A DNA stretch of 34,259 nucleotides, from IMG/VR virus record IMGVR_UViG_3300045391_000686. The stretch is one strand, 5' to 3'. The position numbers and the translations under genes were made by a program. This DNA comes from a virus. The notes below the pieces were generated by a model. That model was not told the origin of the DNA and made no database searches. It saw only the letters and a list, made by a program, of their open reading frames with translations. Positions 1,398 to 26,712 of this stretch are shown here, one piece after another (within the stretch, counting starts at the first letter, position 1; each line of letters starts with the position of its first letter).

Positions 1398-1440
1398 TGG
1401 TATCATAAGCATATGAACTAATGAAAGGAAAAATGACGAT

Positions 1441-2865
1441 ATGAGCTATCAACTACTACCGTTCAGACAATCACCAAACTACACGCCAGCTGGTCAAACA
1501 GCGGCTTTTTATGGTCGACCACGAATCATCACTGATGGTGCTGGTCACTGGTGGGATGCACCCGAAAGATTTCCGTCATTCGCTGGTGTAGTTGCCACGT
1601 TGATGAATCCAGCACGACAGGCATCAGCACAAGATGTCGTCGGTGACGGCGTTGTGCAGCCGCTAGTGCGCAAAGAAGACACTTCATGGGCAACAGGTGG
1701 TGCGAATCCATTCACATATTCAATTGAATGTGACCCACAAATCATCTACCGATGGCGTGCAGGCGGCGACAAAGCGAAAGCAAACCGCATCTTCGAAACA
1801 TTATGTGAACGCATCGCTGACGTGAACATGCACAACACACCATGGTCACCACATTGGCGCTGGATGACCACAGGATGCAACCCGATTGATTGGGCTGACG
1901 TCAACCGTCGTGCCAAGGAAATTTGGGCGCAGAAATACGGTTCACCAGTCACGCCACCACCAGCGCAAAGCGCCAACATCGTTTGGGAAAAGCTACCGAC
2001 ACCAGTTGCATACGTCACCAACAAGCAGCCGACAAAGCTTTGGAACTTCAATCAAACTGGTTGGGCTGGATTCGGCAACGGCGTTCGTGACTTCAACAAG
2101 GGTGAACAAATTGTCATCTATGGTCGTGCAATCAACAAGACGCTGAATGCGGTCTATCTGGTCACGCAGTACAGCTTCGAAAAGAAAATCACCAATGGCT
2201 TCAATGCCAACGATTTGACAGTCTACGTCGCACCAGCACCAGTGCCAGTGATACCAGAATGGCAACGCAACTTGAAAGACATCACGCCAGTGAAGCTGAT
2301 GGTTCTGACGGCACAGACGCCAGTTGTGAACTTGAACGATGGCACAGCCATCAAGCAACTTGGTCAAGGTACATGGATTGACTTCACCAAATCAACCGTC
2401 GTCGGCGGCATCGAATATCTGATTTCAAGCTATTCAGCAACCAACGCAATGGCAAACGGCGTGCGTCGTGCCGATGTCGGCGTGCCAGCTGAACCACCAG
2501 TCAATGAGAAACCAGAATGGCTGAAGAATTGGCAGGACATCACAGACGTGCCAATGTACGCAAGGGCAGACACCGACTTGGTGAATCTTGAAGACGGTTC
2601 GACCATCAAGGTGATTCCACGAGGTACGAAGCTTGATATTTCCAGCACGACAGAATGGCACGGTCACAAATATGCCATCACCGTATACAGCACCGACAAG
2701 AAGTTTGGTCAAGGTATTCGGCTTGATGACTTGGACATGAAACCAGTTGACGCCGATGGTGGCGATGTTGAACCAGCACCAACGCAGCCAACCATCGAAG
2801 AAAATGTGAACTGGTTGATGAAAGCCGTCAAAGCAATATTGGCTTTCTTAAAAATTAACGTATAG
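1441..2865 (+). CDS. Endolysin: N-acetylmuramoyl-L-alanine amidase (amidase_2/PGRP type) plus three SH3b-like wall-binding repeats
   Basis: 474 aa. The N-terminal ~170 aa are amidase_2-like (SPNYTP..., GHWWD, SAQDVV, TYSIECDPQ). A Pro-rich linker follows, then three ~80-aa repeats (KLWNFNQTG.., PVVNLNDGT.., DLVNLEDGS..) and a C-terminal amphipathic helix NWLMKAVKAILAFLKINV. Confidence 0.9.
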   Translation: MSYQLLPFRQSPNYTPAGQTAAFYGRPRIITDGAGHWWDAPERFPSFAGVVATLMNPARQASAQDVVGDGVVQPLVRKEDTSWATGGANPFTYSIECDPQIIYRWRAGGDKAKANRIFETLCERIADVNMHNTPWSPHWRWMTTGCNPIDWADVNRRAKEIWAQKYGSPVTPPPAQSANIVWEKLPTPVAYVTNKQPTKLWNFNQTGWAGFGNGVRDFNKGEQIVIYGRAINKTLNAVYLVTQYSFEKKITNGFNANDLTVYVAPAPVPVIPEWQRNLKDITPVKLMVLTAQTPVVNLNDGTAIKQLGQGTWIDFTKSTVVGGIEYLISSYSATNAMANGVRRADVGVPAEPPVNEKPEWLKNWQDITDVPMYARADTDLVNLEDGSTIKVIPRGTKLDISSTTEWHGHKYAITVYSTDKKFGQGIRLDDLDMKPVDADGGDVEPAPTQPTIEENVNWLMKAVKAILAFLKINV

Positions 2866-2880
2866 AAAGGAAACATTGAA

Positions 2881-3183
2881 ATGAATGTTGTCGAGTTTTT
2901 ACAAACAATAGTGGTATCGGGTGCGGCAGTAGTCGCAATCGTGCAGTTTCTCAAATCGAACTTCGTGCCAGCCACGGTGTTCAACAAATACCCACGTCTG
3001 ACGACGTTTGTGGCGTCTGTATTGGCGACACTGGTTGCAGTATGGCAAAAGTGCCAAGACGTCGTTGCAGGCTGTCAAACGCTTCTTCAGCAGCCACTTG
3101 ACTACGCAGCGGCAGTCGTCGGAATCTTCTTGATTGCCGTCGTGCTGTACAACAACGTATTGCGTGACAAGCCACAAAGCTGA
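2881..3183 (+). CDS. Putative holin (100 aa, about three TM segments)
   Basis: Lies immediately downstream of the endolysin with a good RBS (gaaaggaaacattgaaATG). Hydrophobic segments are IVVSGAAVVAIVQFL, TFVASVLATLVAVW and AAAVVGIFLIAVVLY, with a charged C-terminus. Confidence 0.65.
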   Translation: MNVVEFLQTIVVSGAAVVAIVQFLKSNFVPATVFNKYPRLTTFVASVLATLVAVWQKCQDVVAGCQTLLQQPLDYAAAVVGIFLIAVVLYNNVLRDKPQS

Positions 3184-3293
3184 TACACTTGAAAAGTTCA
3201 GTGGTTCACTACCCATAGACCGTGACGTTTCGCACCTGTTTCGTCGGTAGTAGCAGAATGAACATGACAGTGTGGGATTGAGTTTCAAACAAG

Positions 3294-3318
3294 AAAGCCG
3301 CCGAAAGGTGGTTTTTTT
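3294..3318 (+). terminator. Rho-independent terminator at the end of the late/lysis transcription unit
   Basis: aaagccgcc gaaa ggtggttt: a stem with two G-U pairs and a GAAA loop, followed by a T7 run (3312-3318). Confidence 0.6.
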
Positions 3319-3338
3319 GTACCTATGTTATATTCACG

Positions 3339-3383
3339 AAAGTATAGAAAAGTATTGACAAAATGGCAAGAATGCGCTATACT
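3339..3383 (+). promoter_or_regulatory. Early promoter P1: tandem decamers AAAGTATAGA/AAAGTATTGA, -35 TTGACA (3355-3360), 17-nt spacer, -10 TATACT (3378-3383)
   Basis: Consensus sigma-70/sigma-A hexamers at the ideal spacing. It is one of four near-identical cassettes. Confidence 0.7.
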
Positions 3384-3521
3384 GTATACAGAATCGAAAA
3401 CAAAACAAAAACGATTCAAACACCTCTGGTTGTGATATACGCCGCACTGAACTTTCAAAAGCATCAGTCAATAAGTCGAACAAGCAACATTTTGACAGGG
3501 GTGTTTTTTCTTTGGTCAAGA

Positions 3522-3566
3522 AAAGTACAGAAAAGTATTGACAATTGTGGCACGGTCATATACAAT
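3522..3566 (+). promoter_or_regulatory. Early promoter P2: AAAGTACAGA/AAAGTATTGA, -35 TTGACA (3538-3543), 17-nt spacer, -10 TACAAT (3561-3566)
   Basis: Same cassette as P1, P3 and P4. The -10 lies 36 nt upstream of the first early ATG (3602). Confidence 0.8.
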
Positions 3567-3601
3567 TGAAATATCAACAAAGGAAAGGCACATTTGACGA
3601 T

Positions 3602-3802
3602 ATGCAAACCAACGAAGTACGAACCACCGAAGAAACAAAAGACTATGATTGCTTTACAGGCGGCATCATCACCAAGCATTGGGTCACATACCACTACCCA
3701 CGACCAGTGACTTTGGTTCACTACACAGCCACCAAGCACAACGGCGAAACTTCAAAGAAATATACCCGAATCGGCAACGCAACCAACTGGTTGGGCAAAT
3801 AA
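3602..3802 (+). CDS. Early hypothetical protein (66 aa)
   Basis: First cistron after P2. RBS aaaggaaagg, start context TTGACGATATG. Confidence 0.65.
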   Translation: MQTNEVRTTEETKDYDCFTGGIITKHWVTYHYPRPVTLVHYTATKHNGETSKKYTRIGNATNWLGK

Positions 3803-4512: not shown

Positions 4513-4860
4513 ATGAATACAAATGAAAATCAATCCACACTGTTCGATAGTTACAAGCTGACAAAGGTCGAGGGCATCAGCAAGATGCCAACCGACGCAG
4601 CGTTTCACGCATTCCACCGTGCCAACCCATGGGTCGTGAAAGAGTTGGAAAAGATAGCATGGGAAATGCTTCGCAGCGGTAGAAAGAAAATCGGCATTCA
4701 AGCTTGCATTGAAATCTTTCGTTGGGAAACACGCCGCCACACTATCAGCCACGACTTCAAAATCAACAACAATTTTGCGTCACGATACGCACGTTTGATT
4801 CATGACCGCAACCCACATTGGGGTCAAGTGTTCGAACTTCGAAACATCAAGAAAGGATGA
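4513..4860 (+). CDS. Early hypothetical protein (115 aa)
   Basis: Starts 2 nt after the upstream stop. Sequence FHAFHRANPWVVKELEKIAWEML...NNNFASRYARLI looks like a conserved phage family of unknown function. Confidence 0.65.
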   Translation: MNTNENQSTLFDSYKLTKVEGISKMPTDAAFHAFHRANPWVVKELEKIAWEMLRSGRKKIGIQACIEIFRWETRRHTISHDFKINNNFASRYARLIHDRNPHWGQVFELRNIKKG

Positions 4861-4867: not shown

Positions 4868-5143
4868 ATGAATCCAAATGAACCATATGCAGAATTTGTC
4901 GACCTTGGCACAAGCCGTCTGATGGTATTTGCCAACCGATTCGAACACGACGGTTCGATTTCGTGGTCTATCGGCACAACCAGCGGCGCAAACGTCGGCG
5001 TGCAGATTGGCAGCAATAGTCAAAACGCACTTGCAGAATTGAAGCAGCTGAAAAAAGCCATCGACGGCGCTGTGAAATTCCACGATAATATAAACAAACA
5101 GAACGATGCGAAAGGAAAAAACAACGATGGGGTCAAGAAATAA
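4868..5143 (+). CDS. Early hypothetical protein (91 aa)
   Basis: RBS aagaaaggatgaatcaatcATG. The internal start was chosen over the 4802 ORF-track start. Confidence 0.6.
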   Translation: MNPNEPYAEFVDLGTSRLMVFANRFEHDGSISWSIGTTSGANVGVQIGSNSQNALAELKQLKKAIDGAVKFHDNINKQNDAKGKNNDGVKK

Positions 5144-5369: not shown

Positions 5370-5602
5370 ATATAGAATTTGACAAAGAGTGGTACAGACC
5401 ACGAGAAATTGCGCAAAAGCGATTCATCACGAATTCGCTGGACAGTGACAAGGAATCAGCAAACTACGATTTCATACTTGAAGAAATCAAACGTGGTGAA
5501 CTGAAAGCACGGAACTATTCAAAATCAGCATATCGACCATATTGGTTGGTGTCGGCAAAAGAAATCGAAAGGTATCTGAAAAGTCATGCCGCACAAGCCT
5601 GA
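5366..5602 (+). CDS. Small helix-turn-helix DNA-binding protein (excisionase/MerR-like HTH_17 pattern, 78 aa)
   Basis: ATGA overlap with the upstream gene. The WYRPREIAQKRFIT...WLVSAKEIERYL pattern is typical of Xis-type winged HTH proteins. Confidence 0.5.
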   Translation: MNIEFDKEWYRPREIAQKRFITNSLDSDKESANYDFILEEIKRGELKARNYSKSAYRPYWLVSAKEIERYLKSHAAQA

Positions 5603-6234: not shown

Positions 6235-6441
6235 ATGGTTGAAAGCTTTGGGCGGTATGAAACAGCGTGCAAGGGCAAGCGAAAGTTTGCCACTGAATCA
6301 GACGCAGTTCGTGCCGCCAAAGAGTTGCGAAAGCGTGTTGGTGCAAGGGTCAAACCGTACCAGTGCCAACATTGCCAGCAATGGCACAACGGTCATTTTC
6401 GCAGAATAATCAAAGCGCTTCGACCTCTGACAGTTGAATGA
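6235..6441 (+). CDS. Early small protein with a CxxC...H zinc-ribbon-like C-terminus (68 aa)
   Basis: YQCQHCQQWHNGH motif. The start is uncertain: ATG 6235 or TTG 6211. Confidence 0.5.
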   Translation: MVESFGRYETACKGKRKFATESDAVRAAKELRKRVGARVKPYQCQHCQQWHNGHFRRIIKALRPLTVE

Positions 6442-6485
6442 AAGTATAGAAAAGTATTGACAATCATGACAATCTTTGCTACACT
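6441..6485 (+). promoter_or_regulatory. Promoter P3: AAAGTATAGA/AAAGTATTGA, -35 TTGACA (6457-6462), 17-nt spacer, TGn-extended -10 tgcTACACT (6480-6485)
   Basis: Third copy of the cassette. The leader carries GAAAGG and ATGACGATATG. Confidence 0.8.
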
Positions 6486-6522: not shown

Positions 6523-6756
6523 ATGACAAAAAAATCAACAACACCAACAACCGATGCAGCCGCATCAAACAAAAAGACAATGCCAGCCACACTGAAGACA
6601 GTTGTGACACTGGTTGAGGTAGTAGCACGCTTCTTGGCAGCATACCTTTTATTGAACAACTTCGACCACATCGTGGCAGTTGCAGCAGGATGGTATTTCC
6701 TGATAACCGCAGCCATGGCGTTCGTCGCACTAGTTCACAAAGCATCTAAAAACTAG
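6523..6756 (+). CDS. Small membrane protein (77 aa)
   Basis: First cistron after P3. Two hydrophobic helices VVTLVEVVARFLAAYLLL and VAVAAGWYFLITAAMAFVALV. Confidence 0.65.
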   Translation: MTKKSTTPTTDAAASNKKTMPATLKTVVTLVEVVARFLAAYLLLNNFDHIVAVAAGWYFLITAAMAFVALVHKASKN

Positions 6757-6810: not shown

Positions 6811-7494
6811 ATGGCGAAGACTGACGCCGCAACTGAAGCAAAAAAGCGCAAGACAGAATTGAAGTCACAGTTCGGTGAATTCATTCCAGAGGGCAACGAC
6901 CCTGAACAGCTATACAAGCAATGGGTTTCAGCACTGTTCGGAAAAGAAGAAACACCAGACGACGACATGCTATTTCGTGCGCTGACAATGGCAAAGCTTG
7001 CAGGAATCGACATTCGTGGCGGTTTGCTGTACATCAAAGACGGCAACGTCATCATCAACATCGACGGTCTTGTGGCTATTGCTGACAAAACTGGTCAATA
7101 TGGTGGCACGTCAAAAGTTGAATATCAATACGACGAAAACCAGAAAGCCAAATCGGTCATCGTTGGCATCTACAAAATCATTGGTGAACACGTTCTGACA
7201 CCAGAACAGATTGTCATGATGGATGAATACGACACTGGTGATGGCTTATGGGCTGACGCAAAGGACGGCGGCAAGAAGCTGTCAATGCTGAAGAAAGTCG
7301 GTTTGGCGCACGTCATTCGTGCATCATTCACCACTTGTGCTGGTCTGTACATACCTGAAGAAGTTTCGGGCGTTGCCAAAAAGAAAGTCGCAAAGACGCA
7401 ATCTGAAATGGAAACGAACATCACCAAGGCACTTGCGAAGAATCGCAAAAAGGGTCAATCTAATATTGAACCAACCAAAGCAAAGAAAGCATAG
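6811..7494 (+). CDS. Single-strand annealing protein, RecT/Red-beta superfamily (227 aa)
   Basis: The pattern ...AGIDIRGGLLYI..INIDGLVAIADKTG...MMDEY...W...KLSMLKKVGLAHVIRASF...LYIPEE matches RecT/Bet hallmarks (DG, MLxKxA..R.aF, EE). Confidence 0.8.
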   Translation: MAKTDAATEAKKRKTELKSQFGEFIPEGNDPEQLYKQWVSALFGKEETPDDDMLFRALTMAKLAGIDIRGGLLYIKDGNVIINIDGLVAIADKTGQYGGTSKVEYQYDENQKAKSVIVGIYKIIGEHVLTPEQIVMMDEYDTGDGLWADAKDGGKKLSMLKKVGLAHVIRASFTTCAGLYIPEEVSGVAKKKVAKTQSEMETNITKALAKNRKKGQSNIEPTKAKKA

Positions 7495-7499
7495 ACGAT

Positions 7500-8120
7500 A
7501 TGCAATACAACGTGAAGAACGACGGAAAGCTTCACACCCGATTCAGCGACCTGATGCGTGCAACACCACATCAAGTGGAAAACATCATCAAAGAACAGTT
7601 GGGTGAAAAAGAACGCTTCAAATCAGATGTCATGGACTTCGGCAGCATCCGTCATGACATGTGGGAAAAGGAATCGAAAGAAACAGGCATGTTGCCAGTG
7701 GTTTTTCGTGACGCATTTCCGCAATACAAAGATTTGCAAATCACACATGCTGAAAAAGAATTCGCAACCGAACTGTTCAAGAACATCGTGATTCACAGCC
7801 GACCAGACGGCGTGTCTGTACCATCAGCCATTGTGGTTGACTACAAGACCATGGTCAAAGGTGCAGGCGGCGCACGACGGTATGCCAGTTCGAAGCAATT
7901 GCCATTCTATTCATTCCAACTTGGCATTCACAACATACGCATCAAAAAATATGTGTATCTGGTTGAAATTTGGAACAAAGAATATACGGAAATTATCGGG
8001 TACGACTGTTTTGAAAAGACCGTCGGCTTGATTGATATTGCCGCCGCAAAGAAGTGGGCGCATGACCGCTGTGAAGTGCTTGCAATGGGCATGAAAATGG
8101 CAGGGTTGTGGAAAGGTTGA
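7500..8120 (+). CDS. PD-(D/E)xK exonuclease (RecB/Cas4/YqaJ-like), partner of the annealase (206 aa)
   Basis: GSIRHDMWE, then RPDGV....IVVDYKT (D...D-x-K motif), then QLPFY. It is adjacent to the RecT-like gene. Confidence 0.7.
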   Translation: MQYNVKNDGKLHTRFSDLMRATPHQVENIIKEQLGEKERFKSDVMDFGSIRHDMWEKESKETGMLPVVFRDAFPQYKDLQITHAEKEFATELFKNIVIHSRPDGVSVPSAIVVDYKTMVKGAGGARRYASSKQLPFYSFQLGIHNIRIKKYVYLVEIWNKEYTEIIGYDCFEKTVGLIDIAAAKKWAHDRCEVLAMGMKMAGLWKG

Positions 8121-8126
8121 CCGCTT

Positions 8127-8171
8127 AAAGTATAGAAAAGTATTGACAATTGAAACATGCTTTGCTACAAT
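8127..8171 (+). promoter_or_regulatory. Promoter P4: AAAGTATAGA/AAAGTATTGA, -35 TTGACA (8143-8148), 17-nt spacer, TGn-extended -10 tgcTACAAT (8166-8171)
   Basis: Fourth copy of the cassette. Its leader gaaatatcatcaaagaaagg is almost identical to the P2 leader. Confidence 0.8.
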
Positions 8172-8204
8172 AGAAATATCATCAAAGAAAGGATGAAAAA
8201 CGAT

Positions 8205-8807
8205 ATGCAAGAACAACCAAATCTGACACCAGTCAAACGACAGGTGACCACCATCAGCAATCAAGCTGGTGACCTGATGATTGATTCGCAAGAATCATTG
8301 TCACAAGCGACAGACATTCTGTCGAAAATCAAGACTTCAGCGAAAGACTTGAAGTCACGCAAAGAAGAAATCACCAACCCATTGAACGCAGCGCTGAAAT
8401 CAGCACGTTCATTGTTCAAGCCGCTTGAAGATGATTTGGCAACAGCCGAACGCACCATCAAAGGCAAAATTCTTGACTACTCAAATGAGGTTGAAGAAGA
8501 AGCACGCAAGAAAGCCGCAAAGCTTGAAGACCGTGTTGAACGTGGCACGATGCGCACCGACACAGCAATGCGCAAGATGGATGAAATCGAAACTGTCGGT
8601 TCATCTGTACAGGGCGCAAGCGGTTCAGTGCAATTCCGCATGGTACGCAATATCAAAATAGTAGACCCGACCAAGATTCCATTGAAGTATCTTTCAAACG
8701 AAAAAGTCTTGGCAGCAATCAGCGCAGCAGTTCGAACAGACGTTCTGAACGGCACAAAGGTCGATGGCGTTGAAATAGTCGAAGAAAAGCAAATTGCCGC
8801 ACGATAG
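8205..8807 (+). CDS. Siphovirus Gp157-like / DUF1351-like coiled-coil protein of the recombination module (200 aa)
   Basis: Long coiled-coil N-terminus, then the C-terminal pattern VQFRMVRNIKIVDPTKIPLKYL...VLNGTKVDGVEIVEEKQIAAR as in Gp157-type proteins. Assigned from memory of the family pattern only. Confidence 0.45.
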   Translation: MQEQPNLTPVKRQVTTISNQAGDLMIDSQESLSQATDILSKIKTSAKDLKSRKEEITNPLNAALKSARSLFKPLEDDLATAERTIKGKILDYSNEVEEEARKKAAKLEDRVERGTMRTDTAMRKMDEIETVGSSVQGASGSVQFRMVRNIKIVDPTKIPLKYLSNEKVLAAISAAVRTDVLNGTKVDGVEIVEEKQIAAR

Positions 8808-9334: not shown

Positions 9335-9895
9335 ATGGGAACAGCATTTGACAAGGGCAAAGCATACGAATTGCACATTGCCAAGCTAGTGCGCAAGAAA
9401 GCCGACAAAGGTTCAATGCGCAACCGTGGCAGCCACACGGCAAGTACGCATGACGCCGACGTCTTCACGAATCTACCGATTCACATTGAAGCCAAGCATC
9501 ATGAAAACGTGCGCATCAAAGACTGGATGGAACAAGCCGAAGCCGCTTCATCATTCCATCAGACAGCTGTCGTTGCATTCCGCATCGACGACAAAGACTA
9601 TGCCGCACTGAATTTCGAAGACTTGATGAACCTGTTCGTGCAGATTGCCGACCAGCAAGCCGAAATCAACGATTTGCGTGCGCCAGTTGAACACATAGTC
9701 GTCAAACCAGCCAAAGCCGCTGAAAACGCACGACATGAAGCCGTGGCGCTATCGCAGAAAGCAATCGCAAAGAAGAAAGATGCACCAGCCATCAAATACG
9801 ACAAAAACGGTCACATTGTCGATGAATATGGCTATTGTATGCAAAAGGGTTGCAAGTACAATCGAAACTACCGACCACCGAAAGTGAAACGATAA
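9335..9895 (+). CDS. PD-(D/E)xK nuclease, probable Holliday-junction resolvase-like enzyme (186 aa)
   Basis: The pattern GTAFDKGKAYELHIAKLV...DADVF...IHIEAKH (D...E-x-K) with a basic, Cys-containing C-terminus. RBS gaaaggcgctagacATG. Confidence 0.55.
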   Translation: MGTAFDKGKAYELHIAKLVRKKADKGSMRNRGSHTASTHDADVFTNLPIHIEAKHHENVRIKDWMEQAEAASSFHQTAVVAFRIDDKDYAALNFEDLMNLFVQIADQQAEINDLRAPVEHIVVKPAKAAENARHEAVALSQKAIAKKKDAPAIKYDKNGHIVDEYGYCMQKGCKYNRNYRPPKVKR

Positions 9896-10374
9896 TGAAG
9901 AAGAAACCAGACGTCACAGACCAGTTGGTCGAAGCACGGAAAAACATTGAAGTGCTGAAAGTGCAGATGGATGACGACATTGACGTCACCAACGAATTGG
10001 CATACAGCGACGAACAGCTGAAGCGATTGGCGACCAAATTGCCACGCATCATGTTTCAAGCGTCGCAAAGCACCGTGTTGAAGTTCATCGACTTCAAAGA
10101 TGCCAAGCGCAAGGTGAAAAAAGAATTGGCACTTGCGATGATGCAAGCCAACCAGATGAAAGATGATTTGTCATCAGCTGAAGACCGCAAAGCGTGGGCG
10201 CAGAATGCTGACAATGTTGAGAAAGCCGAAATCGACTTGATACAGGCTGAAGCCGAATACCGCATGGCTGAATTTCATTTCCAAGCATATGACAATTTGT
10301 ACATGGCGGTGAAGAAGATGATTGACATGCGCATGGCTGAAAACGCAGCGCAAGAAAGGGCAAACCGAACATGA
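9895..10374 (+). CDS. Hypothetical coiled-coil protein (159 aa)
   Basis: TAATG overlap upstream and ATGA overlap downstream. Confidence 0.6.
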   Translation: MKKKPDVTDQLVEARKNIEVLKVQMDDDIDVTNELAYSDEQLKRLATKLPRIMFQASQSTVLKFIDFKDAKRKVKKELALAMMQANQMKDDLSSAEDRKAWAQNADNVEKAEIDLIQAEAEYRMAEFHFQAYDNLYMAVKKMIDMRMAENAAQERANRT

Positions 10375-10688
10375 ACGACGGCATCATCACACAGTTCACG
10401 AATCAATTGATTTCGAATATTGAAGCGATGCACGAATTCTTGTTTGGCAAGCCAAAGCACGCAAACTGTCGCAGTATCACCATGGCGGTTGACCCGATAT
10501 TCTTTGACGGCAAACCCCGATACATGGACATCAAACCACCAGAAACATACGAAGACTATCAAATAAGAAAGTGGCTTTCACAAGTGCCACACGGCGGCAT
10601 CGTTGGCAATATGGCTGTGCTTATATGCTATAATGAAAAACATCCGTCGGCGTCACTTGTGATTGTCGAGGACATCAAAACCATATGA
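10371..10688 (+). CDS. Hypothetical protein (105 aa)
   Basis: RBS agaaagggcaaaccgaacATG. ATGA overlaps on both sides. Confidence 0.6.
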   Translation: MNDGIITQFTNQLISNIEAMHEFLFGKPKHANCRSITMAVDPIFFDGKPRYMDIKPPETYEDYQIRKWLSQVPHGGIVGNMAVLICYNEKHPSASLVIVEDIKTI

Positions 10689-11314
10689 ATATTGACTATC
10701 GAAAAGTGATTTTGGCATTCATTGCAGCGGTCATCATTGCGATACCAACAGCAGCGGCATTCCAGAATCGAACCAACCAGATTGAAAGTGAACGGCAAGA
10801 CAAAAGCCGACTTCAGCTTGACGTGAAAAAGAAAGATTCTGAACTTGAAAAACTCAAGATTCAGACCAAAGAAAGCGAAGCCGAAAAGCTACGCATTCAA
10901 CAGGAAAACGAACAGCTGAAGAAAGATTTGCAAGCCAAACGTGAACGACAGGCTGAAGAACAGCGATTGGCGGCGGCGCAGGCATCGAAACCAGCCGCCG
11001 TTTCTGTTGGCATCAGTGGCAGTTGCGAATCATACCGACCATTGGTTCAAAAGTATTTCGGCGCAGCAACAGCGTCGGCAATGATAACCATGCAGAAAGA
11101 ATCGGGATGCAACCCGACAGCCGTGTCACCGACAAACGACCATGGATTGTTTCAGCTGAACGGTCAACCAGTATATGACCCCGAAGCCAACATTCGCATT
11201 GCATACGCCAAATTTGTGTCACCACGCCGTGGCACGAATCCAAACTGGTCGGCATGGTATGCGGTTTGTACACCCGACCTTGTGCCAAAGTATTCGGGCA
11301 TCTGGTGTTCGTAA
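10685..11314 (+). CDS. Membrane-anchored lytic transglycosylase (TM helix, coiled coil, SLT/lysozyme-like domain; 209 aa)
   Basis: TM helix VILAFIAAVIIAIPTAAAF, a heptad-rich region, then MQKESGCNPTAVSPTNDHGLFQLNG...IAYAKF (catalytic E-S and GLxQ motifs). Confidence 0.75.
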   Translation: MNIDYRKVILAFIAAVIIAIPTAAAFQNRTNQIESERQDKSRLQLDVKKKDSELEKLKIQTKESEAEKLRIQQENEQLKKDLQAKRERQAEEQRLAAAQASKPAAVSVGISGSCESYRPLVQKYFGAATASAMITMQKESGCNPTAVSPTNDHGLFQLNGQPVYDPEANIRIAYAKFVSPRRGTNPNWSAWYAVCTPDLVPKYSGIWCS

Positions 11315-11351
11315 ACATAAACAGATAGAATGGTTTCATGACGATAGAAAC

Positions 11352-11421
11352 GCCGACATCATTCCGACCTTTCACCCACTCGTGAATTGCATATCGTCAT
11401 TCGGAACTGGTGTCGGCTTTT
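11352..11421 (+). terminator. Two-tier hairpin plus T4 run; candidate intrinsic terminator or attenuator at the early/late boundary
   Basis: GCCGACA (11352-58) pairs with TGTCGGC (11411-17). TTCCGA (11362-67) pairs with TCGGAA (11401-06). TTTT follows at 11418-21. The apical loop is large (33 nt). Confidence 0.45.
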
Positions 11422-11441
11422 CTGTTGCCATCCGCAGCGTG

Positions 11442-11463
11442 AAAGTATAGAATAGTATCAGCA
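11442..11463 (+). repeat. Degenerate fifth copy of the promoter-cassette upstream element (AAAGTATAGA/ATAGTATCAG) lacking a TTGACA -35
   Basis: gaAAGTATAGAAtAGTATcAgCA compared with the consensus AAAGTATAGAAAAGTATTGACA. There is no -10 at the cassette distance. Confidence 0.6.
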
Positions 11464-11494
11464 TAGACGATATGCAGAAAGCGAGGGTATAAAA

Positions 11495-11791
11495 TTGAAA
11501 AACTTCTTCAAACGTAAACCGAAGCCGCAACCAGCTTCGAAAACTGTGCCGCTGAAAACGAAAGCGTCACCAAAAACCAAAGCAGCGATTGACTTCTTCA
11601 ACGACAAGAAATCAGCCGTCGACATGCTGGAAACAGACCGACGCCGCAAGTTCGTTCATAGTGGGTATACAAAGACGAAAGTCGACCACTTCTTTGAATG
11701 GGTAGAAAAGCAGCCATGGGGCATGTGGGCTGTGTATGCAGTAGCAACCGCATTCGTCGTTGCTGTCGCTTATTGGGGTATAAAGCAATGA
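11495..11791 (+). CDS. Tail-anchored membrane protein with a Lys/Pro-rich N-terminus (98 aa); first gene of the late operon
   Basis: TTG start 7 nt after gagggt. C-terminal TM helix WGMWAVYAVATAFVVAVAYWGI. Confidence 0.55.
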   Translation: MKNFFKRKPKPQPASKTVPLKTKASPKTKAAIDFFNDKKSAVDMLETDRRRKFVHSGYTKTKVDHFFEWVEKQPWGMWAVYAVATAFVVAVAYWGIKQ

Positions 11792-11931
11792 AGCAACGTA
11801 CTTTGAAAGCCGTCGGTTTGGCGCTTGCGCTTGCAGGCGCATTCGGCTTTGGCATGTGGTTCATGTATTTCATCCAGTGGGTTGAAGTGTTCACCAAATT
11901 CATGGAAATGACGGAAAAGGTTTTCAAATGA
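11788..11931 (+). CDS. Small single-pass membrane protein (47 aa)
   Basis: ATGA overlaps on both sides. TM helix AVGLALALAGAFGFGMWFMYFI. Confidence 0.5.
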   Translation: MKQRTLKAVGLALALAGAFGFGMWFMYFIQWVEVFTKFMEMTEKVFK

Positions 11932-12869
11932 GAATCGCATTTTTGGGCAACTTCAACGTGCCGTTCACCAGTGAATCACACTACGCCGCAACACTTGAAA
12001 AGATGGGTCACAAAGTCATTCGTTTGCAAGAACCAATGGTGACCACAGACCGTGTGTATCAAGTCGCTATCGAATGCGACATCTTCTTTTGGGTTCACAC
12101 GCATGGATGGGATTTGAAAGGCAACCGCACGATGACTGAAGTGCTTCGTCGGCTTGAACGCAAGGGCATTCCATCAGTGGCATATCATCTTGATTTGTAC
12201 ATGGGTTTGCGCCGATGGAACGAATACCATGACCACGAATACTTCAAAGTGAAACACTTCTTCACTGTCGACAAATTGATGGCTGATTGGCTGAACGAAA
12301 ACACCAACACGGCTGGTCACTATTTGCCAGCTGGTGTGTTCGAACCAGAATGCTATATTGCCGACAAAGATGACCGCTTCGATTTCGATGTGGTCTTTGT
12401 TGGTTCACGTCGCTACCATCCAGAATGGCAGTACCGACCAAAGCTGATTCAGTTTCTTGAACAGACATATGGCAAGCGATTCGCACACTTCGGCAATGAC
12501 GGAAAGCACGTCGTTCGTGGCGATGAACTGAATCGACTATATGCCAGCGCCAAAGTTGTTGTCGGTGACACGCTTTGCATTGACTTCACATACCCACACT
12601 ATTGGTCTGACAGAATCTATGAAACCACTGGTCGTGGTGGCATGATTATTCATCCATTCATTGAGGGTATAGACACGCAGTTCGAAGCAGGAAAAGAAGT
12701 CATGTTTTACCAATACGGTGACATGCGTGATTTGAAAACCAAGATTGATGAATTGCTGAAAGATACCGAATATCGTGAAAAAATCCGTTTGGCTGGTCAT
12801 GAGCGCACGAAGCGTGACCATACATACACCAGCCGATTGCAAACAATAATTGACACAGTAAAGGGGTGA
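11928..12869 (+). CDS. Glycosyltransferase, CgeB-like (GT-B fold, Glyco_trans_1_2 type; 313 aa)
   Basis: The C-terminal pattern SDRIYETTGRGGMIIHPFIEGIDTQFEAGKEVMFYQYGDMRDLKTKIDELLKDTEYREKIRLAGHERTKRDHTY matches the CgeB-type GT signature. Confidence 0.7.
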   Translation: MRIAFLGNFNVPFTSESHYAATLEKMGHKVIRLQEPMVTTDRVYQVAIECDIFFWVHTHGWDLKGNRTMTEVLRRLERKGIPSVAYHLDLYMGLRRWNEYHDHEYFKVKHFFTVDKLMADWLNENTNTAGHYLPAGVFEPECYIADKDDRFDFDVVFVGSRRYHPEWQYRPKLIQFLEQTYGKRFAHFGNDGKHVVRGDELNRLYASAKVVVGDTLCIDFTYPHYWSDRIYETTGRGGMIIHPFIEGIDTQFEAGKEVMFYQYGDMRDLKTKIDELLKDTEYREKIRLAGHERTKRDHTYTSRLQTIIDTVKG

Positions 12870-12871
12870 CC

Positions 12872-13561
12872 ATGAAAATATTTGCACATGACCCACGATT
12901 CATCTTTGATGGTCGTGATGATTCAAAAACTGACGCCGTTGTCGTGCGTGAGATATGGTGCGAAAACGTATACGAAGTCTTTGACGGTGATTTGAACGAC
13001 ACAGGCATTGTGGTCGACCTTGGCGCAAACATCGGCGCATTCACTCTGTATGCGGCAGCACTTGGCGCAAAGAAAGTGATTGCCGTTGAACCGCAAAAAG
13101 AAAACGTCGAAATGCTGGTGAAAAACGTCGGCGCAAATCGTCACAACGTGCCGAATTGTGAATTCGTATTCGATGAACGTGGCATCAGTGGGTACATGGG
13201 TGAAGCAATGATGAACGCCAAGCATGGTGATTCATCTATCGTTGGCGTGCATTCGTCGACTATGAACACACCAGCTGGAAAAGAAGATTTCACACAGCGA
13301 ATTCGCACGACGACGCTGGACGGCTTGTTCAAAGACCATGGGCTTGAATTCATTGACGTGCTGAAAATTGACATCGAGGGTCTTGAGGGTGAAGTGATTT
13401 TGGCGGCATCAGAAAGCACGCTGAATCTGTGTCGATACATCACTCTTGAATATGACCAGCACGCAAATGACCTTGGCGCTATCGTCGAGAAATTGAGCAA
13501 AACACATCAAATCAAGTATGTCGGCAGCAATGGCGGCATGTTATTCGGAAAGAGGTATTGA
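12872..13561 (+). CDS. FkbM-family SAM-dependent methyltransferase (229 aa)
   Basis: VVDLGANIGAFTLYAAALGAKKVIAVEPQKENVEMLVKNV and FIDVLKIDIEGLEGEVI are FkbM (Methyltransf_21) hallmarks. ATG 12872 lies 5-6 nt after aaagggg (a GTG at 12866 is the alternative start). Confidence 0.8.
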   Translation: MKIFAHDPRFIFDGRDDSKTDAVVVREIWCENVYEVFDGDLNDTGIVVDLGANIGAFTLYAAALGAKKVIAVEPQKENVEMLVKNVGANRHNVPNCEFVFDERGISGYMGEAMMNAKHGDSSIVGVHSSTMNTPAGKEDFTQRIRTTTLDGLFKDHGLEFIDVLKIDIEGLEGEVILAASESTLNLCRYITLEYDQHANDLGAIVEKLSKTHQIKYVGSNGGMLFGKRY

Positions 13562-13562
13562 A

Positions 13563-14138
13563 ATGAATCGTCAAACACGTCGCAGCGCAGACTTCGACAT
13601 CAAGAAGTACATCAAAGCAAGCAATGAAATTGAGGGCATATACAGCGAAGAAGAAGATGCACAATCGCTTTTGGCATGGGCATATCTTGAACAGCTGGAT
13701 TCGCTTTCGCACGCTGACATCATGCGTGTGCAGAAAATCATCACGCTTCACCAAGAAGACTTGCAGCCAAATCAACGTGGGTACTACCGTGGCATGGCAG
13801 GCAACATGACAAACGTATCTGTCGGTGGTCGGGTTGCACCTGATTATTCACTAGTTGAAGACTTGATGCGCAATTGGCTGATGGACGTGGCACAAATGAC
13901 GCCGCTGATTGGTCACATTCGATTTGAAATGATTCACCCATTCGTCGACGGCAATGGTCGCACTGGTCGCATGTTGTACTGGTATGTGTGCAAGCGCCGT
14001 GGCATCAAACCAACGTACTACAACGCCGACGAAGAAAAGAATCGTCAAGCATACTACCGACTATTTGAACACGAACGTGTCATCAAGCTTTCGAACATGG
14101 GCTGGATTATCAAAGACGACAAGGATTTGCAGTCATGA
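13563..14138 (+). CDS. fic: Fic-domain protein (191 aa) with the canonical AMPylation motif and an N-terminal inhibitory-helix motif
   Basis: HPFVDGNGRTGR fits HxFx(D/E)GNGRxxR. SNEIEG near the N-terminus fits (S/T)xxxE(G/N). RBS gaaagaggtattgaaATG. Its stop overlaps the next ATG. Confidence 0.9.
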   Translation: MNRQTRRSADFDIKKYIKASNEIEGIYSEEEDAQSLLAWAYLEQLDSLSHADIMRVQKIITLHQEDLQPNQRGYYRGMAGNMTNVSVGGRVAPDYSLVEDLMRNWLMDVAQMTPLIGHIRFEMIHPFVDGNGRTGRMLYWYVCKRRGIKPTYYNADEEKNRQAYYRLFEHERVIKLSNMGWIIKDDKDLQS

Positions 14139-22540: not shown

Positions 22541-23809
22541 ATGTCCAAGCAAGAACAAATCGAAACCGTGCTTGACGACGAAGCTGTGAAAGCAATTGCA
22601 GCCGAAGTCGCAAAAGGGATGGGCGACACCATCAAGTCAACTGTTGACGAAGCTGTCAAAGCAGCTATGCCAGCAGAACCAGTCGTCAAAAAGAACGTAA
22701 GCACCAAGGGTGCAGACGGTGACACACCATCGAATGATGATGACGCACCTGAAGAAGACGAAGCAACGAAAGCGCTGAAAGCACTTTCACCAGCCAAGCG
22801 TCTTATGCGTTCAGCAATCGCATTGTCAAAGGGTGACCGCAGCACGCTGAAGTCACTGAACGCTGTTGCCATTGGTAACATCGAAAAAGCAGGCTATGCA
22901 ACAAGTGATGTCAACGCTGACGGTGGCTACATCGTTGCAGACCCAGAGTTCGAAGCTGAAGTTGAGAAACTTGCTGAAGACTATGGTGTTGCATTCGTTG
23001 AAGCAGATGTTCGAAACATCAGCACCAACGCCATCAAGACCAACAAGCGTGGTTCAAACGTGACCATGTACGAAACTGGTCAAGGTGCGAAAAAGCGTGG
23101 TACTAAACTGACCATCGAACGAATTCTTGTTGAGCTTCGCAAGTTTGCCGCAATTGCTATCGCAACCGACGAACTAGTTGAAGACGCAGCCATCGACTTT
23201 TGGGCTGAAGTCACACAAGGCTTCGCAGAGGAACGCGCACGCATCGCTGATGAACTAGTGTTCACTGACGACGGCGGCAGCCTGTACAACACCAGCGGTG
23301 TCGGTACTGGTATTCTTGAAACTGACGGTGTTGCAGTTGAAACAGTGGGTGCAAGCATCCAAGACATCACATGGGATGACCTGTTGAACGCTGAAGCCAA
23401 AGTGCCAACCAAGAGTGCGAAGAACGGCAAGCACTTCATGCACCGTTCAATCTGGAACATTCTTCGACAGAACAAAGACGACCAAGGTCGATACCAAGCT
23501 TTGCCAAGCGCTGGTCTGGTAACACCATGGGGTACACCTGTTGTGCTTGTTGACGTTCTACCATCAGCAACAGAGGGTGGCGCAAACAACGGTTACACTG
23601 TATTTGGCGACCTGAAGCGTGTGAAACTGTACGTCAAGCGTGGTCTTGTTCTTACAGAGGGCAAAGAAGCCACTGTCACCGATGCTGACGACGAAGAAGT
23701 CAACCTATACGAACAGGACATGAGCGCATTGCGTGCTGTCACTCGTATGGTCGCACTGGTGAAATTCCCTGAAGCATTCTGTGTCATCGGCACTGGTACT
23801 GTTTCCTAA
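22541..23809 (+). CDS. Major capsid protein, HK97 fold, with an N-terminal delta-like domain (422 aa)
   Basis: Follows the protease. ADGGYIVADPEFEAEV and downstream patterns are typical of Phage_capsid (HK97 family). Confidence 0.9.
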   Translation: MSKQEQIETVLDDEAVKAIAAEVAKGMGDTIKSTVDEAVKAAMPAEPVVKKNVSTKGADGDTPSNDDDAPEEDEATKALKALSPAKRLMRSAIALSKGDRSTLKSLNAVAIGNIEKAGYATSDVNADGGYIVADPEFEAEVEKLAEDYGVAFVEADVRNISTNAIKTNKRGSNVTMYETGQGAKKRGTKLTIERILVELRKFAAIAIATDELVEDAAIDFWAEVTQGFAEERARIADELVFTDDGGSLYNTSGVGTGILETDGVAVETVGASIQDITWDDLLNAEAKVPTKSAKNGKHFMHRSIWNILRQNKDDQGRYQALPSAGLVTPWGTPVVLVDVLPSATEGGANNGYTVFGDLKRVKLYVKRGLVLTEGKEATVTDADDEEVNLYEQDMSALRAVTRMVALVKFPEAFCVIGTGTVS

Positions 23810-24367: not shown

Positions 24368-24390
24368 GAAACGGCATTCGGGCAGCAATC

Positions 24391-24418: not shown

Positions 24419-24575
24419 GTGCTTTTGTAGTACAATATGAATATGGGTACAATCGACGAAGCACTAAAACGGCGCAAGGCAATCAGCCAAGAACAAATCA
24501 CACATCGTGCAATTCTTGAACCTGAAACCACCAGACAAGCGCCAAAGCCACGTCAAAACAGAAAGAGGGTGACAA

Positions 24576-25190: not shown

Positions 25191-25516
25191 TGCTTGACGG
25201 CTATCTTGTCGACCAGTGCGAAGTGATAGCGACCACCAGAAACGATTTCGGTGACGAAGTTGAGGGTGTGACGCAAACTTTGCCGTGTCGATGGCGTGAC
25301 ATCACGCTGGTACGCCGTGCAGCGCATATGGACACATCAGACGCCAATGCGCTTGTTCATTTTGCACCAGACGCCGCCGTGGAACGTGGTTCGATTCTCA
25401 AGTTCAATGGTGAATACTATCAAGTGGATGAAATCACATACGCAAAGCGACTTGGTGAAACCACCGTTCAGTTCATCAAATGTGGTGTGACCATCACAAA
25501 TTTGGGGGTTTCATAA
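25190..25516 (+). CDS. Head closure / head-tail joining protein (108 aa)
   Basis: Size, position and the ...ILKFNGEYYQVDEI pattern. TAATG overlap upstream. Confidence 0.6.
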   Translation: MLDGYLVDQCEVIATTRNDFGDEVEGVTQTLPCRWRDITLVRRAAHMDTSDANALVHFAPDAAVERGSILKFNGEYYQVDEITYAKRLGETTVQFIKCGVTITNLGVS

Positions 25517-25899
25517 TGGGCGCATCAGTACACGTTGACAACAAGATGGCTGTTTTCATGCGTGCCAACGAAGCAGCAATGGAACGTGCGCTTGAACGCA
25601 TGGGCAATGACGTCTTCGTGCTTTCACAGTTCAAAGTGCCGTTTCTCAATGGTGACTTGAAAAGCAGCGGTGAACATATTCGCATGGGTCGGCTTCATCG
25701 TCGTGTACAATATGGTGAAAGCGGTGCGCAAGGCTACGCATCATATCAGCACCGTGGTATGAGAAAAGACGGAAGTCGCATCGTTCGAAACTACACGACC
25801 AGTGGAACGAACAAAAAGTTTCTTGAAGACAGTGGCAAAATCATTGCGCCAAAGTCGGGTCAATATTTCAAACGTGAATTCGAAAGTGTGAGGGTATAA
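25516..25899 (+). CDS. HK97 gp10-like neck / tail-completion protein (127 aa)
   Basis: TAATG overlap. Patterns VPFLNGDLKSSG and YASYQHRG; position in the connector block. Confidence 0.55.
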   Translation: MGASVHVDNKMAVFMRANEAAMERALERMGNDVFVLSQFKVPFLNGDLKSSGEHIRMGRLHRRVQYGESGAQGYASYQHRGMRKDGSRIVRNYTTSGTNKKFLEDSGKIIAPKSGQYFKREFESVRV

Positions 25900-25900
25900 C

Positions 25901-26305
25901 ATGGCGGTTCTGGACAATCCAATAATTCAAGACATTGCCAACTACACGGCTGACAACACTTCACTTGTCATTCGTGACACCATCTACGCTGGTGAACTGA
26001 AGCGTGGTGTGAATGGCGTTTTTGCCGTTGCCGCACCGTCTGAAGCACCCGACAAAGAAACAGGCATTCTGTACCAGTCGGTGGATTTTTGGGCAAGGAA
26101 CGAAGACACTGGAAAAGCATTCGAACATCTGACTGAAATCTTCAATCTGTTTGACCGCAAACACCACTACACGGCAAGGGGTTATTTTGTGCATTTCAGT
26201 CACAATGATTCAAACATCGAAGACATGGACAAAGACGCAGAGGGCGCAAAGTTGCTAAAGCTTTCCGTTCGTTTTATACTAAACAGCACAACAGCATTAT
26301 CATAG
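25901..26305 (+). CDS. Tail terminator-like protein (DUF3168-like; 134 aa)
   Basis: Last gene before the chaperones. The pattern IRDTIYAGE...GILYQSVDFWARNED..AFEHLTEIFNLF resembles tail-terminator proteins. Confidence 0.5.
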   Translation: MAVLDNPIIQDIANYTADNTSLVIRDTIYAGELKRGVNGVFAVAAPSEAPDKETGILYQSVDFWARNEDTGKAFEHLTEIFNLFDRKHHYTARGYFVHFSHNDSNIEDMDKDAEGAKLLKLSVRFILNSTTALS

Positions 26306-26322
26306 AAAGGTATCATGACGAT

Positions 26323-26712
26323 ATGACACAACAACCACAACAGGACGCAACATTTGACTTGGACTTGGACACTCTTGGGCAGTCCAAAAAGCGTGTGAAA
26401 ATCGGCGGCAGCGTCATCGAATTCGACCCACCATCATTGCAAGATTTGATTGAACTTGCCAAATTGGGCAGCAAGCTTCAAAAGATTCAGAACCAAGGTG
26501 ACAATGTAGACATCGACAATATGTCTTCAGTCATGGATGAATTATCAAATGGCTTGACCAACATCGTGCCAGAATTGAAAGAACACAAATTGAACATGGA
26601 ACAGCTTCTTGCGCTGATTGATTTGTTTGTACAATCGGCACAGCCGAACGACACCAAGGAACTTGAAAAGCGTGGCATCAAGCTTGACGGTGACCAAAAA
26701 AAAACGGCGTAA
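26323..26712 (+). CDS. Tail assembly chaperone (gpG-like; 129 aa)
   Basis: Lies immediately upstream of the tape measure, is acidic, and ends just after an A9 slippery run. Confidence 0.75.
   Translation: MTQQPQQDATFDLDLDTLGQSKKRVKIGGSVIEFDPPSLQDLIELAKLGSKLQKIQNQGDNVDIDNMSSVMDELSNGLTNIVPELKEHKLNMEQLLALIDLFVQSAQPNDTKELEKRGIKLDGDQKKTA

Follow-up and report, generated by a model that had tools for sequence, protein, structure and literature searches.

The window and its relatives

The stretch of viral DNA analysed here, IMG/VR record IMGVR_UViG_3300045391_000686, is 34,259 bp long and is referred to as a whole as the window. It carries repeated copies of a nine-nucleotide motif, RACGATATG or (G/A)ACGATATG, which includes the start codon of genes lying close behind predicted promoters, and a single inverted copy that falls within a predicted structured RNA of about 85 nucleotides (nt). 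This motif and its candidate RNA partner are our subject. All genes of the window are on the plus strand. Among them, functions could be assigned to terminase, portal and tail genes, to an amidase endolysin, a RecT-like protein, a Gp157-like protein and an SLT-domain protein, to two nucleases (a PDDEXK/YqaJ-type exonuclease and a PDDEXK_15 nuclease), and to glycosyltransferases, an FkbM-type methyltransferase and a Fic protein.

Nucleotide searches of the window against GenBank phages gave no match, and its portal protein is only about 24% identical to known portals. The relatives are metagenomic phage genomes, with proteins down to 40–60% identical and a GC content of 38–47%. They include R1, a complete 33.7-kb IMG/VR contig (IMGVR_UViG_3300005664_000029), R2, a divergent IMG/VR contig with proteins 40–67% identical, and L124, L125 and L130, together with L219 and L224–L228 (GC 38% to 45%), which were retrieved through a conserved early protein. 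Conservation counts were taken over 11 related genomes amounting to 222 kb. Distant carriers of the conserved early protein (L220, L222, L223 and L229) and a further locus, L145, proved to be unrelated phages and have no motif. A first loose DNA pattern scan of IMG/VR returned mainly chance single matches, and a second loose scan, which was filtered, recovered several copies together with an inverted copy only in relatives that were already known.

A nine-nucleotide motif includes the start codon of seven genes

Nine copies of RACGATATG are present in the window, against 0.34 expected, and none of 100 shuffled sequences reached nine. Eight of them lie on the coding strand, as GACGATATG at 1435, 3596, 6517, 7494, 11466 and 26317 and as AACGATATG at 8199 and 19328, with the longer sequence ATGACGATATGA common to three sites. 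A rescan of the window returned the same coordinates and sequences for these eight sites, and the same three sites for the 12-mer, as the first-pass annotation of this DNA. That annotation had also reported that CGATATG occurs elsewhere only twice; it had scanned one strand, and thereby missed minus-strand occurrences at 5529 and 34154 as well as the ninth perfect copy, which is inverted on the minus strand at 11390–11398. At seven of the eight sense sites the ATG opens an open reading frame (ORF) of 66–678 codons with a GAAAGG-type Shine-Dalgarno sequence (SD) about 12 nt upstream, and the motif lies 3–7 nt downstream of this SD and takes in the ATG. At the eighth site, the ATG at 11472 has no SD. 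The gene-start sites and the predicted promoter elements in front of them are as follows.

1398–1406, plus strand: extended -10 box TGGTATCAT before the endolysin gene
1435–1443, plus strand: motif GACGATATG at the start of the amidase endolysin gene (1441–2865), conserved in R1 and R2
3538–3566, plus strand: promoter P2, TTGACA-17-TACAAT
3596–3604, plus strand: motif after P2, at the start of the first gene (3602–3802)
6457–6485, plus strand: promoter P3
6517–6525, plus strand: motif after P3, at the start of the first gene (6523–6756)
7494–7502, plus strand: motif at the start of the PDDEXK/YqaJ-type exonuclease gene (7500–8120), with a -10-like TAATAT at 7461–7466
8143–8171, plus strand: promoter P4
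8199–8207, plus strand: motif AACGATATG after P4, at the start of the first gene (8205–8807, Gp157-like)
19290–19295, plus strand: -10-like TATGAT before the portal gene (TATAGT, TATACT or TATTAT in relatives)
19328–19336, plus strand: motif AACGATATG at the start of the portal gene (19334–21370)
26275–26280, plus strand: -10-like TATACT before the tail gene
26317–26325, plus strand: motif at the start of a putative tail assembly chaperone gene (26323–26712), upstream of the tape-measure gene

Less exact versions of the motif are found at further starts. The major capsid gene begins with a degenerate copy, AACGATTATG (22534–22543), where L124 has the exact motif, and a second degenerate copy, AACGATAATG (9888–9897), lies on the start of the gene at 9895. 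The sequence AACGATG at 5123–5129 covers the start of the gene at 5127, with another AACGATG 21 nt upstream. A half motif, AAATATGCAA, is present on the start of the gene at 33196–33750, behind a strong extended -10 promoter TGCTATAAT (33161–33169).

Several simple accounts of the motif were discarded. A three-codon upstream ORF within ATGACGATATGA (Met-Thr-Ile-stop, running over the start) would exist at only about one third of the sites, and its AUG is just 4 nt from the SD, so that its use is unlikely. Comparison by hand with the initiator-tRNA anticodon loop and the 16S 3' tail gave nothing convincing in the way of extended pairing. Local hairpins between the motif and its own leader amounted, by eye, to a 5-bp AUAUC/GAUAU in the P2 and P4 leaders, which is not conserved.

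The motif is conserved and follows promoter-proximal position

Across the 11 related genomes there are 59 sense-strand copies of ACGATATG, compared with about three expected by our own calculation, and 44 of these are at SD-preceded ORF starts while eight are in late-operon leaders. The ATG register is exact at all 44 starts, positions -5 to +3 are invariant among them, and position -6 is G in 33 cases, A in nine and C in two. No lineage with an altered motif was found among the relatives. In orthologous leaders the stretch from the -10 box to the motif varies freely and the motif itself is unchanged; the site behind P3, for example, is kept in R1, L130, R2, L224 and L227 despite divergent leader sequence. 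Since the motif is retained at orthologous and at non-orthologous starts in the 11 genomes, this comparison bears out the earlier proposal of a selected start-associated sequence, for which a check in related genomes had been suggested. Such conservation shows strong purifying selection to be acting on the motif.

The motif keeps to a position behind a promoter. The R2 homologues of the RecT-like gene (6811–7494) and the Fic gene (13563–14138) stand directly behind TTGACA promoters and have the motif, whereas in the window both genes lie inside operons and have none. At the exonuclease junction of R1 (7500 in the window), the motif ATG is followed immediately by an inserted gene of 52 codons, which encodes a probable membrane protein (R1 14553–14711), and the displaced R1 exonuclease gene is coupled through a TAAATG start and has no motif. 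This insertion suggests gene gain by recombination at the motif. Within the window, genes that bear the motif outscore the remainder in -10-like elements 21–51 nt upstream (Mann-Whitney p=0.0003), and the elements in front of the portal, tail and endolysin genes differ from one relative to another in the way that functional -10 boxes do (TATGAT, TATAGT, TATACT and TATTAT). Comparison across the relatives thus indicates that the motif marks the first start codon of a transcription unit, independent of gene identity. The first-pass annotation had assigned it to the first cistron of every promoter cassette. The tie to promoter-proximal first cistrons stands, but 'every' is too strong, as the P1 cassette has no motif and the start behind the promoter at 33161–33169 has only half of one.

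Some further observations concern these promoters. No credible ORF lies downstream of P1 (TTGACA-17-TATACT, 3355–3383); it is followed by a sequence of about 125 nt that ends in a terminator-like stem and U-tract, CACCUCUG...CAGGGGUG UUUUUU, the region including P1 being 3355–3515 on the plus strand. R2, L225 and L226 retain parts of this sequence at the corresponding position, and a second version is present in R1 and L227. The P1 product is probably a further non-coding RNA of the phage. An upstream block, AAAGTATAGAAAAGTATTGACAAT, is common to the early promoters, each of which has AAAGTA(T/C)AGAAAAGTA directly in front of its -35 element (3338–3354, 3521–3537, 6440–6456 and 8126–8142; the R2 version is AAAGTAGAAAAAAGTG). 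A near copy of the block, AAAGTATAGAATAGTA, occurs in the late promoter region (11441–11457), where an A-to-T change creates the -10 TAGAAT. The block may be an UP element or a factor binding site. In L219, two TTGACAAGC promoters (640–690 and 3115–3160) have -10 boxes only 7–9 nt before an ATG and would yield leaderless or nearly leaderless mRNAs, one of which begins ATGACGAC.

The shared upstream block invites the explanation that the motif is a by-product of a mobile promoter and leader cassette, or of a recombination linker, the 9-mer serving at most as a short homology for gene shuffling. The R1 gene inserted exactly after a motif ATG would fit this, as would the way the motif moves with promoters to different genes in R2. 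However, in genomes with 40–60% protein identity the 8-mer does not vary at any of 44 sites, in contrast to the 20–30 nt that separate the motif from the -10 box within cassettes, which diverge freely, and gene conversion would be expected to homogenise a whole cassette rather than 8 nt of it. Sites without a cassette (portal, tail gene and endolysin) and the inverted copy are also left unexplained, and we find this account the hardest of all those considered to credit.

The motif lies at a variable distance from the promoter, from +6 to about +36 relative to the predicted transcription start, and in an exact ATG register, a combination that argues for a function of the mRNA at initiation rather than of promoter DNA. 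The hexamer RACGAT nevertheless resembles a -10 element and is found 12–36 nt after predicted -10 boxes, so that sigma on an early elongating polymerase might read (G/A)ACGAT as a signal for a promoter-proximal pause. The pause element of lambda pR' is AACGAT at +1 to +6 (PMC4005639), the critical A2 and T6 are present on the non-template strand over the whole range of distances, and RACGAT also occurs 4–7 nt before four further starts. A pause does not account for the invariance of C3 and G4, for the invariant ATG in copies that are not starts, or for the inverted copy and the RNA structure described below. Several sites have only weak promoter predictions, and no Q-like factor was identified. 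Sigma-dependent pausing is accordingly very improbable as the reason for the motif.

The late-operon copy lies in a conserved leader

The eighth sense copy is found in front of the late operon, where the following elements are predicted.

11425–11453, plus strand: predicted late-operon promoter, TTGCCA-17-TAGAAT, between the anti-leader RNA (below) and the leader
11461–11494, plus strand: late-operon leader GCATAGACGATATGCAGAAAGCGAGGGTA, a conserved block with the motif at 11466–11474, about +6 from the predicted transcription start
11483–11487, plus strand: late SD GAGGG; the first late gene starts with TTG at 11495

The GCATAGACGATATGCAGAAAGCGAGGGTA block begins about 5 nt past the predicted late transcription start. 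Its nucleotide sequence is conserved, while the identity of the first late gene varies among relatives. The ATG at 11472 would open an ORF of six codons, which the first-pass annotation had taken to be a mini-ORF heading the late operon. In relatives this frame has six codons in some cases, is reduced to ATG-TAG in L125, ATG-TAA in L224 and two codons in L226, is frameshifted in L130, and is fused in frame in R2 and L124. Because the ATG has no SD and the ORF is broken in relatives, 11472 belongs to a conserved leader and not to a gene, and the peptide MQKARV is ruled out as a gene product.

The inverted copy lies in a predicted structured RNA

In all related genomes covering the region, the inverted copy of the motif occurs once, with an invariant sequence, and its place is always after the SLT-domain gene's stop codon and before the late promoter. 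The features predicted around it in the window are listed here.

11326–11331, plus strand: predicted -10 box TAGAAT, directly after the stop codon of the SLT-domain gene
11338–11424, plus strand: predicted structured RNA of about 85 nt (anti-leader or anti-motif RNA), with no Rfam family match
11338–11346, plus strand: 5' element of the RNA, AUGACGAUA
11352–11367 paired with 11401–11417, plus strand: outer stem of the RNA
11368–11400, plus strand: internal region of 33 nt, which opens with an invariant CCUUU and contains an inner hairpin and the unpaired CAUAUCGUCAU
11390–11398, minus strand: inverted motif copy; the plus-strand RNA reads CAUAUCGUC, the exact complement of the motif
11418–11424, plus strand: U-tract of the RNA

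Scans of the window for Rfam families and transfer RNAs gave no match. When lineages were folded separately, 10 of 11 gave the same structure, with a GC-rich outer stem, a small inner hairpin and CAUAUCGUCA(U/A) as an unpaired strand of 11 nt. The four full-length RNAs that were folded had z-scores of -3.1 to -6.5. The unpaired probability of the complement is 0.86–0.95, compared with 0.22–0.33 for the remainder of the hairpin, the exception being L226 at 0.47. Only CCTTT and CATATCGTCA are invariant in the hairpin, CAUAUCGUCA being its only long invariant stretch; the sequences of the stem and inner hairpin differ from lineage to lineage.

The stem changes in a compensatory manner. Within the window lineage it appears as GCCGACA/TGTCGGC, GCCTG/CAGGC and GCCAG/TTGGC, and as TCCGA/TCGGA versus CCCGA/TCGGG. 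Each of the 17 related loci that extend over the region (several of which share a lineage) gave a single match to a covariance model. There was no match in L127, which is related but ends short of the region, or in unrelated loci; the structured RNA was absent from all four unrelated loci searched (L145, L220, L222 and L223). The covariation score was 0.29, compared with 0.19 for shuffles, of which none in 500 reached 0.29, and nine pairs changed on both sides, in an alignment that had been fitted to the model. RNAalifold predicted nothing on a MAFFT alignment of the hairpin, owing to register shifts; in the covariance-model alignment such shifts hold the paired fraction at 74%. The analysis of the hairpin therefore rests on the folds of individual lineages and on the covariance-model alignment.

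A -10 box precedes the hairpin in all 11 lineages (TAGAAT, TAAAAT, TACAAT, TATAAT or TATGAT), and in the window lineage it is fixed 6 nt before AUGACGAUA. Downstream, the hairpin is followed by a U-tract terminator, for which the outer stem doubles as terminator stem in the window lineage. R2, L219 and L224 have a separate terminator hairpin, and the L225 and L226 sequences show the same arrangement. It is this conserved -10 box together with the terminator that leads us to predict an RNA of about 85 nt at 11338–11424. We infer two origins for the hairpin: it would form the 3' end of the early-operon transcript, and it would also be transcribed from the -10 box that precedes it, as the RNA of about 85 nt. 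The 5' element AUGACGAUA of the window lineage is itself a near copy of the motif, and pairing over 9 bp with the RNA's own UAUCGUCAU is possible, as a pseudoknot-type self-mask. This self-pairing is kept as G.U through an A-to-G change in L140, and the element is absent from R2-type lineages.

The exposed complement is predicted to pair with the late leader and with start sites

The loop of the predicted RNA would form a composite duplex with the late leader, consisting of a motif helix of 11–12 bp, an internal loop and a second helix over the SD GAGGG. When natural flanks were compared with shuffled ones, the added stability had p=0.0005 in R2, 0.0055 in L125, 0.05 in the window and 0.16 in L130. 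The sequence of the second helix is lineage-specific, and for the R2 anti-leader the R2 leader is the preferred partner by about 12 kcal/mol. Opposite GAGGG, variation within the window lineage is confined to C and U. Leader copies that have drifted would still pair, GGCGATATG in L224 through G.U and GACGATAATG in L227 through a single bulge. The order of inverted copy (11390), late promoter and leader (11466) is the same in R2, L219 and L224–L227, the promoters being predicted, and since the late promoter lies between the two arms, transcripts from it would not contain the masking arm.

The same loop can pair with the motif sites on gene starts over 9–13 contiguous bp. Predicted duplex energies are -15.7 to -20.4 kcal/mol at six of the seven gene-start motif sites and -11.7 kcal/mol at the portal, compared with a median of -7.4 kcal/mol over 55 starts, and the best predicted targets among the 55 initiation regions tested are those that bear the motif. 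The half motif in the region 33161–33201 is still complementary over 8 nt to the loop sequence UUGCAUAU. Compared with the copy in the late leader, the complement is better conserved, staying perfect where the leader copy has drifted, which fits a segment of RNA that is constrained by many targets.

A perfect inverted copy is also what would be expected of a site in double-stranded DNA. A protein bound to an asymmetric site of 9–11 bp could block or modulate transcription in the manner of the stoperators of mycobacteriophage L5, with copies that bracket the late promoter. The sites are promoter-proximal and co-oriented with transcription, three motif-like sequences surround the late promoter (11338, 11390 in inverted orientation and 11466), and the cluster K mycobacteriophage paper itself makes the comparison with stoperators at the level of DNA. 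A roadblock, however, would not require an exact ATG register at promoter distances of +6 to +36, and the lineage-specific second helix, the compensatory stems and the unpaired complement are features at the level of RNA that it leaves unexplained. Among the roughly 40 window proteins scanned (many window proteins being unannotated), no integrase and no repressor-like domain was found, the helix-turn-helix of the small terminase excepted, and searches of 185,579 species genomes with the portal and endolysin as queries returned no prophage or host relatives. Binding of a protein to DNA is thus a distinctly improbable explanation for the motif.

A single antisense RNA as a candidate partner of the motif

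Taken together, these observations lead us to favour, tentatively and as somewhat short of probable, the explanation that the motif is the shared start-codon target of a single antisense RNA of about 85 nt, which would also govern the switch from early to late expression. An RNA partner was among the roles listed in the first-pass annotation, and the conserved complementary loop now lends that suggestion support in sequence; a processing site or an intrinsic translation enhancer, listed beside it, finds none here. According to this explanation, (G/A)ACGAUAUG would be an RNA-level operator built onto the first start codon of transcription units. The exposed segment of 10–11 nt would pair with positions -7 to +3 of motif-bearing initiation regions and occlude the AUG from the 30S subunit. 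Most downstream genes overlap or abut their neighbours and are translationally coupled, and a block at the first AUG would therefore set the output of a whole operon. The longer duplex with the late leader, in which the motif helix is joined by the helix over the SD, would silence read-through transcripts in cis, as in the phage T4 gene e, and in trans the RNA would set a threshold for late expression. The outcome could be either repression or activation. If pairing is what matters, a change of the motif from GACGAUAUG to GAGCAUAUG would need a change of the loop from CAUAUCGUC to CAUAUGCUC to keep the duplex.

Further considerations speak for a role in trans. A closing stem displays the complement in unpaired form and the hairpin has a promoter-like box of its own, neither of which a clamp acting in cis needs; and the complement outlasts its cis partner, as would be expected if it were constrained also by the copies on start codons, which would pair through the 9-mer alone.

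A number of points weigh against this explanation. The RNA, its promoter and any effect in trans are predictions, and the promoter call consists of a -10 box only, the -35 region being poor and overlapping conserved coding sequence. No joint change of motif and complement was found in any lineage among the relatives; the core helix is invariant and therefore provides no evidence from covariation. Lineage-specific matching between the flanks of initiation regions and those of the RNA segment is weak (27 versus 16 matched bases in the window lineage, 17 versus 15 in R2), and the extended consensus ATGACGATATG is kept in R2 even though the flank of the R2 RNA would pair with TTGACG. The order of the loop, CCUUU and then the complement, does not allow both to pair at once with regions in which the SD precedes the motif and fits the late leader only. 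Masking in cis would by itself also explain the inverted copy if some other factor constrains the motif, and a single repressor for early and late units needs additional assumptions about timing.

In a second explanation, the motif is an operator on the mRNA for a protein (a RegA-like repressor or another RNA-binding protein) or for the ribosome, as an enhancer, and the inverted copy is a cis mask of the late leader and nothing else. The fixed AUG register and the invariance of the motif across hosts of differing GC content would suit such an operator, T4 RegA operators overlap the AUG of about 30 mRNAs, and the ATGACGATATG consensus is independent of the flanks of the loop. The mask, for its part, has a T4-like layout, with the late promoter between the arms and the SD in the second helix, and the order CCUUU then CAUAUCGUC suits the late leader alone. 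A candidate protein is found in some relatives, where a KhpA/B-like RNA-binding protein of 83–88 amino acids with a KH domain is encoded next to the PDDEXK_15 gene (L219 7160–7423, R2 10493–10735, L225 15610–15876 and L226 15563–15814). However, no candidate protein is common to all lineages. By tblastn the KH gene was detected in R2 but in neither the window nor R1 nor L224, and gene calling gave none in L227, so that the KH-domain protein is ruled out as a universal binder of the motif. Pfam and PHROG searches of about 40 window proteins, a subset of the ORFs, revealed neither a RegA homologue nor any other RNA-binding domain. As to the ribosome, other uncoupled genes have the same SD and spacing and no motif, and hence the motif is not needed for translation as such. 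A mask confined to the late leader, as noted above, would require neither the GC-rich stem that holds the complement open nor a separate -10 box, and would not be expected to keep the complement perfect where the leader copy has drifted. We regard a protein or ribosome operator combined with such a mask as unlikely, though it deserves more weight than any other competitor of the antisense RNA.

If the antisense RNA is correct, a start-associated-sequence system would for the first time have a mechanism, in the form of a phage-encoded, genome-wide small-RNA regulon directed at the phage's own genes. Real pairing would mean that a small phage with host-type promoters only coordinates all its operons and its early-to-late switch after transcription by means of one RNA, and would provide a compact, orthogonal RNA-operator pair with which translation could be controlled synthetically. 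Should the cis part alone hold, the principle of T4 gene e would be extended to an unrelated group of phages.

Other features of the window

An early protein of 115 amino acids (4513–4860) corresponds to phrog_13625, of unknown function. Its last 91 residues are 100% identical between the window and R1, where neighbouring genes are 45–90% identical, and unrelated phages, some of them high-GC or jumbo-like contigs, have homologues too. Downstream of the late promoter, the operon (11928–15990) starts with two glycosyltransferases, the FkbM-type methyltransferase and the Fic-domain protein, after which come the terminase genes. Relatives carry additional sugar-modifying enzymes, and the genes may form a module for glycosylation of the virion or the cell surface.

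Comparison with known systems

In phage T4, early read-through transcripts of genes e, soc, 49 and I-TevI are kept silent by sequestration of the initiation region in a hairpin that contains the late promoters (PMC3014915). The late region of the window resembles gene e, as known here from sequence, in that an upstream segment would pair with the SD and AUG region of the first late leader and the late promoter lies between the arms. It differs in that a GC-clamped hairpin, which has a separate -10 box and a terminator, carries the masking arm in its loop, that the masking core is complementary to a motif on many other starts, and that the main helix covers an AUG that starts no gene. T4 also provides a precedent for global translational control, since many phage mRNAs have a RegA recognition element that overlaps or abuts the AUG (PMC3014915). 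RegA sites are A+U-rich without a strict consensus, whereas the motif is an invariant 8-mer to which a predicted RNA of the phage is complementary.

In bacteria and prophages, small RNAs that act in trans by base-pairing have a promoter, a structured body, a Rho-independent terminator and an invariant unpaired segment that is complementary to several mRNA initiation regions. The predicted RNA is similar in that it has a conserved structure with an invariant, unpaired segment that could pair with several initiation regions, and in that this segment is its most conserved part. In contrast to such RNAs, its targets appear to be standardised to one identical start-codon site per transcription unit, in a phage of lytic type, and it would in addition be an anti-leader in cis. 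According to one review, no trans-acting small RNA has been characterised from T4 (PMC3014915).

At the level of DNA, the motif shares with the L5-type stoperators (about 13 bp) an asymmetric sequence that is co-oriented with transcription and scattered at gene boundaries across the genome. Stoperators, however, are DNA sites for a prophage repressor and have no fixed ATG register, and here no lysogeny genes were seen and the comparative evidence points to RNA. The sigma70-dependent pause element of lambda pR' (PMC4005639) has in common with the motif the hexamer AACGAT, on the non-template strand and close to the promoter, but not the invariant flanking bases, the ATG register or the inverted copy.

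The closest likeness is to the start-associated sequences (SAS) of cluster K mycobacteriophages (Pope et al., 2011; PMC3203893), the function of which was still unknown in 2025 (PMC12699233). The first-pass annotation had drawn this parallel while noting that the sequences differ, and both parts of the statement hold. Each system is a short asymmetric repeat (about 10–19 copies per genome for SAS) at gene starts that have a strong preference for ATG, in one orientation apart from a single inverted copy away from gene starts. Each is conserved across subgroups, at genes of different families, and is absent from other phages (PMC3203893 for cluster K). The 13-bp SAS consensus GGGATAGGAGCCC is not present here at two or fewer mismatches, and its one match at three, GCGATAGCAGCAC, is within chance expectation. 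SAS lies 3–7 bp upstream of the start, contains the SD core AGGAG and is confined to non-structural genes. Our motif is downstream of the SD, includes the AUG, and is found also on the endolysin, portal and tail starts, in the late leader and on the L124 capsid gene. About half of the SAS sites have 17-bp inverted repeats termed ESAS (PMC3203893), of which nothing similar was seen by eye upstream of the motif, where there are promoters, no formal search for ESAS having been made. The inverted copy of the motif, finally, lies in a conserved structured RNA, and nothing like it was found in the passages on cluster K that were consulted. The absence of the consensus, a position beyond the SD that takes in the AUG, and the presence on late genes as well place the motif outside the SAS family of cluster K, to which, judged by sequence, it is analogous and not homologous. 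If the pairing is real, the single inverted SAS copy of the cluster K phages would be worth re-examining for the same logic. The motif described here thus appears to represent an independent SAS-like system in an uncultivated group of phages and, unlike that of cluster K, one with a candidate partner RNA.

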